Positions 46,227-49,144 of a DNA stretch of 64,000 bases are shown in pieces (positions within the stretch are counted from its first letter, which is position 1; each line of letters starts with the position of its first letter). The stretch is taken from NCBI GenBank assembly GCA_030141605.1, contig JAQGDQ010002384.1:248001-312000 (forward strand). Reading direction: 5' to 3'. Both the position numbers and the translations under genes were made by a program. The notes below the pieces were generated by a model, which worked only from the letters and a program-made list of their open reading frames with translations, did no database searches and was not told where the DNA came from. Origin of the DNA: Tubiluchus corallicola (Eukaryota > Animalia > Priapulida).

Positions 46227-46326
46227 TCGGAACAAATAAACCAGGCATTACCGCTGAACGAAAACAAATTATACGGTCAAAAATACGTGCAATAGGCCGC
46301 ATTGCACGCATGTATCATGTCCTACG
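46227..46326 (+). CDS. PPP3CA: Calcineurin A alternative exon 11a: divergent calmodulin-binding domain (VGTNKPGITAERKQIIRSKIRAIGRIARMYHVLR), 100 nt
   Basis: ttcttttttgcag acceptor, CG|GTAAGT donor, open frame, phase 1 to 2 as in exon 11b; 15/24 identical to the canonical CaM-binding peptide. Confidence 0.88.
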
Positions 46327-46979
46327 GTAAGTGGAGAAGCGAACCACCCTGGAAACCTCCGCATTGCATGGAGTGCCTAGTCGTCGATGCAAGTGCTAAT
46401 GCATTAGAGATGCCTGCGGCTAATACTAACATTATATTGTTTCTAAATAGAGTGTATTTGCTTCCGAAGTGAAGAGAATTCTTAAACCTAACCGGGCACT
46501 AAACTTATTTTTTAATAAGTGCCTTACTGATTTGATATTGAAGCAACGATTCAGTAAATGCCCTTACTAGTTACACTCGGTGTTCATTTCACGGTCCCCT
46601 TATTACTTTGCTTTACAGGGAAAAATGTCGATGAGTTAATAAAAGAATTAAAACTTATTCAGCCTGTGTGTGTTCGCTCAGACCTAAGACTTGCGGCATC
46701 AGATGAAGACCTAGGTATAAGAACTGCGAATGATGCGCTTTATTATTAACAAAGTGGAGCTGAATATGAATTGTGCTGTTGCATATAATTAAATATGACT
46801 GACTAACATTTTTTTTTAAATTCTGGTTTTGTATTCAGTTAAAGAATAGGAACTTGAGCAAAAAGTACGAATTGATCTTTTTTACCTTTGTTGTTATTTA
46901 AAGCCCGTTGGCTTTTTTGTTGTATGAGTAGGTGTGCGTGTGCACGTGCGCGCGTGTGTGTGAATTTTATATTGTTATT

Positions 46980-48804
46980 CTAGAGTTGCCAGATTTGGCA
47001 GTTTAAGTCCTTAAACTAGTGTTGAAATTTATCAACGACCATCAACAGTTTGGAATATTATTAAAAAAATGAGAATATGCACTTATGGCAATGTTACTTT
47101 TCGTAACACTGTTCGTATTTCCTGACTTGTGTGATGTTTTGATTTGGGTGCCCTGCTGTTTTTTTTTTTGTCAGTATATGCTTATGTTCAAGTCGACCTT
47201 ATGTACAAGTCGATGTGCATTTGAAGACCAAAAATTGTATCATTTTGTATATTACCTGTGTACAAGTCCACCCAAAAATATTAAGATCTTCCAGAGTAAA
47301 TGATGTCAACAATGGCCGAGTAATAAATCAATAGCCTACTGTGTTAGTGTGTAAGATACGTGCAAGTGCCTGGGCCGAGTATATTATACCTACCCGATGT
47401 ATATATATATATATATATATATATATATATATACTCATGTTGAGGGCCATCAATGCAATCCATGATAATGCAGCCTGGCCTTTCATCACGCATAATTGTT
47501 TGTAATGCCTTTAACGCTAGTATATCGAGCCCAGGATCCGTCGTAACATTTCAGTCGCTGATTTCTCAATTAAAACTAAAAACACATACCTGAAACGGCA
47601 CAGTTTTATTCAGTAACATCTTTTGAATAGAAATACATCTCAGTTTTCAAATATCAATTCCGTTTATGCATATTTACGCTAGATTTTCAACAGTCAGTAT
47701 CAATCTGAAGATTGTTTTTGCTCCTATATTTACATGTACTGATCGAGTGCTCCGTCGCTAGTTCATTTGCCGGTAATATATAAATTTTAACTTAATTTCA
47801 CATACATTAAAGTAAATTGCAGTAATATTTCTTAATTTTGTGAAGTAAGATGCAAACATTCTCTGATGTGAAGTATCACAGTATGAGTGTTCATTCAGTC
47901 CAGTGTATAATGAAGGATTATTTCTTTACATATTCGTATTGTAGACGACTCTTTAGCGACATATCCCAAAAACTTATCTTAAGTATAAGTCGACCCGAAA
48001 AATTTCACCTTAAAATCGCCTCCCAAAAATTCGACTTGTACATAAGTATATACGGTACTATGTAGACGGTTAACTTCACTAATGCCGCCCATACTACTAA
48101 TTGACATTAATTAGAGACCTTCTTAAGTGCAATATGCTGGAGTCAAAGTTTAGAAATGATAAATCTCGATTTTTATATCTTACAGTAACATCTTAGCGTC
48201 TGTTTCTTTCACCTGTTTTGTCATGCTGTATCAGTGGAGGCTTGTAGCTAAAATAAGTGGGGTGCTGCTTCAGGAAATTTTTAGCCATTGTTTTAATGCT
48301 ATGCAAAATGAAACAAAACATATGTAATTTTAATGTTGTAATTTGTAATTGTAATTTTAAACAAACAAGCATACAAAAACATACGTAAACTTGATAAAAT
48401 CCTAAAAGAAAAAAATTTTGCTTACGAATAGCCTAAATTGCTGCAGTTCAAGAATATGCCAGTACATGGTTTTTAAGAACGTGACAACTGACAACTGTGT
48501 GAGTGACAGTACTTTCTCTACCTAGCAGCAGATGCTAGCAGTGCAGCACAATCATGTGCTCTGGTTCCGTACAAGTATAAAGAAAGAACTAAAGAAAAAA
48601 GACTTATTGTATTGAATATTATCGATAATATTGAGTGAAAATAGGGGGTGCTGCAGTTCCGATACTTATACACAAGCCGCCACTATGCTGTGAACTGGTT
48701 TAAGTGATTCGACAGCACGCGCCCCTTTATATGCCATATATCTCTCATAATTTATGTACTCACAATGTTAAAAAAATTCCTGGCTTATAATCTGGCAACT
48801 CTAG
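46980..48804. mobile_element. Composite non-autonomous DNA transposon (16-bp TIR CTAGAGTTGCCAGATT) holding two nested MITEs (~47172-48057 and ~48232-48685)
   Basis: Perfect TIR at 46980-95 and 48789-804; inner inverted pairs GTATATGCTTATGTTCAAGTCGA/TCGACTTGTACATAAGTATATAC and CAGTGGAGGCTTGT/ACAAGCCGCCACT; right part repeated at 63266-63918. Confidence 0.75.
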
Positions 48805-49056
48805 CGAAAATTTAACAACTGTTTGTTACTGGTTTTTTTTTATTAATTATTTTTCTTTTTACAGTTATACTTTTTTTGGAGAACTTAATCAGTTATAGTT
48901 TGATATGCCTTTGCTTGTATATTAATAAATATTTGTCATATTTATAGACTAGAAAACTTCGGCTTCAGTAGTGGTCTGAATCCTTTATTAATATTTTGTG
49001 TGCGAGTAACTTACTAACACGCTCATGCATGATTTGCTTGCTTGATTTGCCAACAG

Positions 49057-49144
49057 GGGGAGCTGCAGCAGCAGCACGGAAAGAAGTGATTAGAAATAAA
49101 ATTCGGGCAATTGGTAAAATGGCAAGAGTATTCTCCGTTCTGAG
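49057..49144 (+). CDS. PPP3CA: Calcineurin A exon 11b: canonical calmodulin-binding domain ([30 protein letters not shown]), 88 nt
   Basis: Canonical [31 protein letters not shown] branch point at 49012-18, caacag acceptor, AG|GTGAGC donor. Confidence 0.96.

Follow-up and report, generated by a model that had tools for sequence, protein, structure and literature searches.

The calcineurin A gene encoded on the + strand of the window (the whole 64,000-nucleotide stretch of Tubiluchus corallicola DNA analyzed here) contains two homologous versions of the exon for the calmodulin-binding helix, a canonical one, exon 11b, and a divergent duplicate, exon 11a. We consider it probable, with a confidence of roughly 0.7, that 11a is a regulated and mutually exclusive alternative to 11b, the use of which would lead to a differently controlled calcineurin.

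Exons 2–13 could be placed and display ancestral sizes; exon 1 was not found in the window with a crude motif scan. Exon 10 (42688..42765), encoding the end of the CnB-binding region and the start of linker LR1, ends with a phase-1 donor (GAAG/GTGGGT, the slash marking the exon boundary), and exon 12 (49654..49751), encoding linker LR2 and identified from the sequence and from a contig of the X2 set described below, starts at a phase-2 acceptor. Between them lie 11a (46227..46326, 100 nt), bounded by TTTTTGCAG/ on its acceptor side and ACG/GTAAGT on its donor side, and 11b (49057..49144, 88 nt), bounded by CCAACAG/ and GAG/GTGAGC, both of which are entered in phase 1 and left in phase 2; the coordinates, lengths, phases and peptides that a first-pass annotation had proposed for this pair are all confirmed. 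A profile scan retrieved exactly these two copies of the calmodulin-binding exon in the window, in which no other duplicated calcineurin exon was found. We also excluded the possibility that 11a is part of a nested paralog or a misplaced fragment, because no second exon of the gene is duplicated. Downstream are a 9-nt micro-exon in LR2 (50371..50379), recognized from the letters at an X2 joint and from a splice-site scan, whose donor is the best of the whole gene in our splice-site model, and exon 13 (51925..52088; sequence and X2), which contains the C-terminal autoinhibitory domain and the stop codon (52080–52082). This stop is followed by a donor at 52088, where the X2 piece ends, and by a candidate acceptor at 52429, so that the 3′ UTR probably contains an intron. 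The splice-site scan, together with indirect hints from X2, also pointed to a candidate 6-nt micro-exon (44379..44384) that would add two aspartates to LR1 without affecting the frame, and that may be spliced in after exon 10, ahead of 11a or 11b. Repeats are present as well: within the intron separating 11a and 11b, an element with 30-nt inverted ends and a high depth in X1 (47174–48053) is likely a MITE, and 3′ of the gene (57048–58830) there are two reverse-transcriptase-like fragments on opposite strands, which we take to be LINE.

Both 11a and 11b are 3n+1 in length, so that either one alone keeps the frame. The product, measured from exon 2 onward, has 487 amino acids with 11a and 483 with 11b, as against 411 when both exons are included and 375 when neither is, which bears out the earlier proposal that exactly one exon is compatible with a full-length product. 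In the two aberrant cases, the early stop precedes the next junction by 51 nt (both exons) or 69 nt (neither), further junctions follow, and such messages would be removed by nonsense-mediated decay (NMD). We infer from this frame logic that 11a and 11b would be mutually exclusive.

The codon pattern of 11a is that of a selected sequence. It is identical to 11b at 15 of the 24 helix residues, and over the 23 whole codons pS reaches 0.85 (synonymous sites being saturated) for a pN of 0.29 (Fisher P = 9e-5); identical residues use a different codon at 10 of 14 positions, and the differences at codon positions 1, 2 and 3 number 8, 5 and 17. The intron flanks of the two copies no longer align while their coding parts still do, which indicates that the duplication is old. 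Because 11b is itself constrained, we simulated a pair in which 11b was under selection and 11a drifted freely (8000 runs, nine ages): the observed identity and synonymous change were jointly reproduced in at most 0.3% of the neutral runs, whatever the age. The splice sites were ranked with a simple model over the ~39-kb gene span, the true exons being included in the counts. The 11a acceptor comes 13th of 1974 AG and its donor 5th of 2475 GT; 11a is the sole pair that strong with a spacing of 40–200 nt, and the strongest unexplained pair in the 39 kb. The sites of 11a (as predicted from sequence) and 11b score within or above the range of constitutive exons, apart from the weak 11b acceptor (rank 136). 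Both the purifying selection and the clean splice sites attributed to 11a in the first-pass annotation are thereby borne out, and by these measures 11a is an old duplicate under purifying selection rather than a decaying copy.

What the duplication alters in the protein can be read from the helix itself. The 11b peptide is that of the human peptide in PDB 2JZI/4Q5U, and the best PDB matches of 11a are these same calmodulin-bound peptides (E = 2e-5, 15/24 residues). Calmodulin is anchored by Ile396, Ile400, Ile403, Phe410 and Leu413 and contacted by Arg392, Lys393, Arg408 and Arg414, according to the available text of PMC6151454. The 11a helix retains four of the five anchors (Ile396, Ile400, Ile403 and Leu413; Phe410 is replaced by Tyr), all four basic contacts, and the net charge of +7 found in 11b. 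On the basis of these conserved anchors, basic residues and charge, the 11a product is predicted to bind calmodulin still, and likely does. The helix has other functions: oxidation of Met406 reduces calmodulin affinity (PMC2671406, available text), the last eight residues form an autoinhibitory segment that binds the CnA–CnB groove, or LxVP site (available text of PMC8470620 and of bioRxiv 10.64898/2026.09.10.750614), and Ser411 is an inhibitory site for CaMKII (PMC11358029, available text). In 11a, Met406 is changed to Ile and Ser411 to His, a new Met appears at 409, and three of the last eight residues (Val409, Phe410 and Ser411) are replaced. The first-pass annotation missed the second autoinhibitory segment and the two regulatory residues encoded by this exon, which are altered in 11a.

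To appreciate how unusual these changes are, the helix can be set beside 253 others, 173 from proteins and 80 from loci (the best 80 of 252), a redundant collection picked by the pattern KIRAI[GE]. Met406 and Phe410 are invariant in all 253, and five residues of 11a (Gln394, Ile406, Met409, Tyr410 and His411) never occur in them. Ser or Thr is absent at 411 in 60 of the 253 ordinary helices (Gln in 51, Ala in 9), so the loss of Ser411 in 11a is not special. The replacement of Met406 would take away an oxidation off-switch and that of Ser411 a site of inhibition by CaMKII, and the altered autoinhibitory segment would fit the LxVP pocket more poorly; the 11a enzyme would thus be more readily activated and less readily shut off, the direction of the change being a guess by analogy with the mammalian enzymes.

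Transcript evidence came from X2, a contig set of 13 million letters that we guess to be RNA and whose species label is the same as that of X1. X2 differs from the window by 18 letters in 353 exon bases (49056–52088), reflecting either high diversity or a cryptic relative. One contig, with a depth of 148, runs from 11b to exon 12, the 9-nt micro-exon at 50371–50379 and exon 13. Among the junctions that the first-pass annotation had suggested mapping, 49144–49654 is thus observed, but 11a (46227–46326) has no contig cover in X2 or X1 (bins 45552–46495; none in X1 from 45080 either), bearing in mind that contigs show presence, not absence. At its 5′ end, the X2 contig extends into the intron preceding 11b by one letter (49056), whereas a direct join to exon 10 predicts two. 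A second X2 piece covers 44291–44385 and ends at the donor of the candidate micro-exon 44379–44384. The one-letter overlap fits this micro-exon, a divergence of X2 from the window sequence, or the presence of 11a upstream of 11b in the message; since X2 holds nothing on 11a despite the depth of 148 of the 11b contig, one of the first two explanations is better than the third.

By using a combination of protein and metagenome searches, we looked for 11a in other species. The 11a query gave six candidates among longer proteins, none of which scored (representatives hide the isoforms of full-length proteins), and nothing among the cluster representatives of 25–81 amino acids; an ESM Atlas search yielded nothing above 0.86, and the clusters of 20 calcineurins, 17 of which were present in the collection, included no divergent helix among the members listed. 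No 11a-like helix was seen among the 173 protein copies. A scan of metagenomes with patterns admitting both helix versions confirmed 252 stretches, of which the best 80 by 11a-likeness were analyzed: none of these 80 contained an 11a-like exon, and only one, L047, had any second copy, in a broken multi-exon duplicate. In that locus, a broken and intron-less second copy of exons 10–12 (4546–4789) lies 3′ of an intron-less calcineurin ORF; another locus, L079 (1172–1297), encodes a highly diverged protein resembling calcineurin, in which only 17 of the 24 helix residues are retained. Among the same best 80, 18 are genomic loci with a donor after the calmodulin exon (several repeating one species), and the five that span the entire intron 10 each have a single calmodulin exon.

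The only match of an 11a HMMER query against 50% representatives was P0001, a Logan protein that reads through two tandem calmodulin exons, a slightly divergent one followed about 18 codons later by the other. Both copies carry Thr at 411, and for this reason the pair looks like a separate duplication, younger or homogenized, with a spacer so short that steric hindrance could enforce exclusion. From the sequences searched, the 11a/11b pair appears not to be general among animals; the lack of an 11a ortholog is weak evidence, given that the searched set contains no genome of a close relative. In a quick tree that set the 11b form among 48 locus ORFs and 20 selected proteins, the gene falls outside a clade of all named arthropods (support 97), as that of a non-arthropod invertebrate, and groups weakly (80) with sequences outside that clade, which we presume from their appearance to be molluscan or annelid.

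Taken together, the signature of selection on 11a and its missing transcript could also mean that the exon long worked as an alternative to 11b but has since fallen wholly or almost silent in this animal, the selection signal being a trace of its history. We regard such a late silencing as unlikely. It would account for the well-covered 11b form alongside an uncovered 11a in X2, for the failure to find an ortholog in the loci and proteins searched, and for the 9 of 24 residues that have changed, five of them to states never met in the 253 helices; against it, the frame, both splice sites and the nearby motifs are all intact, and the X2 result comes from a single small contig set, a kind of data from which rare forms drop out.

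Alternatively, 11a may serve to produce a truncated calcineurin that lacks the C-terminal autoinhibitory domain, by inclusion together with 11b, by read-through of its donor, or by splicing to an acceptor at 46619. This acceptor, located between the two copies, is strong (rank 15 of 1974) and opens a frame-neutral open stretch of 96 nt (46619–46714) with a poor donor; if 11a were spliced to it, translation would end within five codons, with an AATAAA at 46638. Read-through of the 11a donor gives an immediate stop, the single X2 letter beyond 11b is compatible with 11a or the micro-exon upstream but not with exon 10 as it stands in the window, and a tail-swapped form has a precedent in vertebrate CNA-beta1 (PMC8523714, available text). 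Nevertheless, we find a role in truncation quite improbable: 11a has a perfect GTAAGT donor and the right phase for joining exon 12, as suits an internal exon, double inclusion makes a predicted NMD target, AATAAA is common in these introns (1.4 per kb), and nothing on 11a appears in X2 next to an 11b contig of such depth. That 11a is a neutral pseudo-exon, born from a local duplication and never used, fits the failure to find either a transcript or an ortholog but is very improbable indeed, as neutral decay so rarely reproduces the codon pattern, even with the intact splice sites left out of the count, and as the copies align in their coding part and not in the flanking intron.

Returning to 11a as a regulated alternative to 11b, the introns around the two exons offer a plausible means of control. 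Putative regulatory sites occur 3′ of 11a (46365..46431: TGCATG at 46365, ACTAAC at 46425, and CTAAT half-sites at 46396 and 46420), at the 3′ end of the intron preceding 11b (49012..49056: TACTAAC, TGCATG at 49026, and a weak pyrimidine tract with YGCY repeats), and directly 3′ of 11b (49154..49172: ACTAAT at 49154 and TGCATG at 49167). We take TGCATG and ACTAAY to be RBFOX and QKI/ASD-2 sites, whose position would set the sign of their effect. The two motifs occur together within 110 nt in three of the four flanks of 11a and 11b (3′ of 11a, and on both sides of 11b), as compared with 1 of 24 flanks of the 12 other exons scored, 0.9% of the gene's 110-nt windows, and none of the 36 flanks in the 18 single-copy genomic loci of other animals, the test having been chosen after inspection of the sequence. 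The TACTAAC preceding 11b, near 49017, is the likely branch point and also matches a QKI-type site, but its ACTAAC may have no role beyond branching; the motif pair 3′ of 11b could favor 11b instead. We propose that 11b would be the default exon, and that the binding of RBFOX and QKI/ASD-2-type proteins at the weak 11b 3′ splice site and directly 3′ of 11a would lead to the choice of 11a. The switch would be expected in cells rich in RBFOX and QKI, likely muscle or neurons.

Other ways of enforcing exclusion were considered. Steric hindrance is not supported, given the length of the intervening intron (2730 nt) and its likely branch point near 49017, nor is U2/U12 incompatibility, given the ordinary donors of both exons (GTAAGT and GTGAGC). 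No competing RNA pairing beyond z = −1.7 was detected in 28 flank pairs (G-U pairing allowed, over flanks of 150–200 nt), none of the four flanks folded better than its shuffled versions, and there was no telling inverted repeat; a docking/selector mechanism of the Dscam type, which works through competing long-range pairings, is therefore not supported by these flanks.

The arrangement resembles that of egl-15, let-2 and unc-32 in the worm, whose mutually exclusive exons are not multiples of three and are under RBFOX/ASD-2 control; as here, these are homologous 3n+1 exons with a long intervening intron and UGCAUG in the flanking introns, and NMD clean-up was shown for 14 of 19 non-3n clusters (PMC4165533, available text). 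The worm cases were verified by RT-PCR and mutants, whereas the mutual exclusion of 11a and 11b is predicted from sequence (same source for the worm genes).

Within calcineurin, the variants described in the accessible text of PMC12503234 are terminal changes, LR1/LR2 cassette exons, and a mutually exclusive nematode pair, 13a/13bc, in LR2. The last, in C. elegans tax-6, is the closest parallel: a single calcineurin A gene contains a tandem pair of homologous exons in its regulatory region, and the two are mutually exclusive, tissue-biased (neuron vs. muscle) and partly non-redundant. They encode LR2, after the calmodulin-binding domain, with a kinase site in both copies (PMC12503234); unlike tax-6, the gene studied here has duplicated the calmodulin helix and autoinhibitory segment and has a single LR2 exon, exon 12. 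In the vertebrate PPP3CA/B/C genes, cassette micro-exons of LR1 and LR2 tune the regulatory arm by splicing while the calmodulin helix is unchanged (PMC12503234), and the present gene likewise combines a 9-nt micro-exon in LR2, included in the X2 contig, with a candidate one in LR1. The splice form CNA-beta1 shows altered autoinhibition at the LxVP pocket, as predicted for 11a, but it is canonical through the calmodulin-binding domain and has its C-terminus replaced (PMC8523714). In the 11a form, by contrast, the C-terminal autoinhibitory domain would be retained. A splice swap of the calmodulin-binding exon itself was not found in the literature searched, in which subscription papers are thinly covered. 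The novelty is narrower than the first-pass annotation suggested, a homologous mutually exclusive pair having been published for nematodes one exon downstream (PMC12503234).

The calmodulin helix of calcineurin A is nearly frozen from corals to mammals, and combines the calmodulin anchor, a second autoinhibitory segment, an oxidation sensor and a CaMKII site. A selected variant that alters those positions and keeps the anchors amounts to a natural experiment on the invariance of the helix and on the uncoupling of its controls. Only tentatively can one go further and suppose that a tissue-specific swap of this calmodulin-sensing and self-inhibiting helix, for a version devoid of the oxidation switch and of the CaMKII brake, yields a naturally feedback-resistant calcineurin, and that the exon has been duplicated more than once in animals. 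The weight of the finding is limited by the fact that 11a was not seen in the X2 and X1 contigs and by an apparently narrow range. Should it hold, the known splicing of calcineurin would reach beyond the linkers, to the calmodulin sensor.
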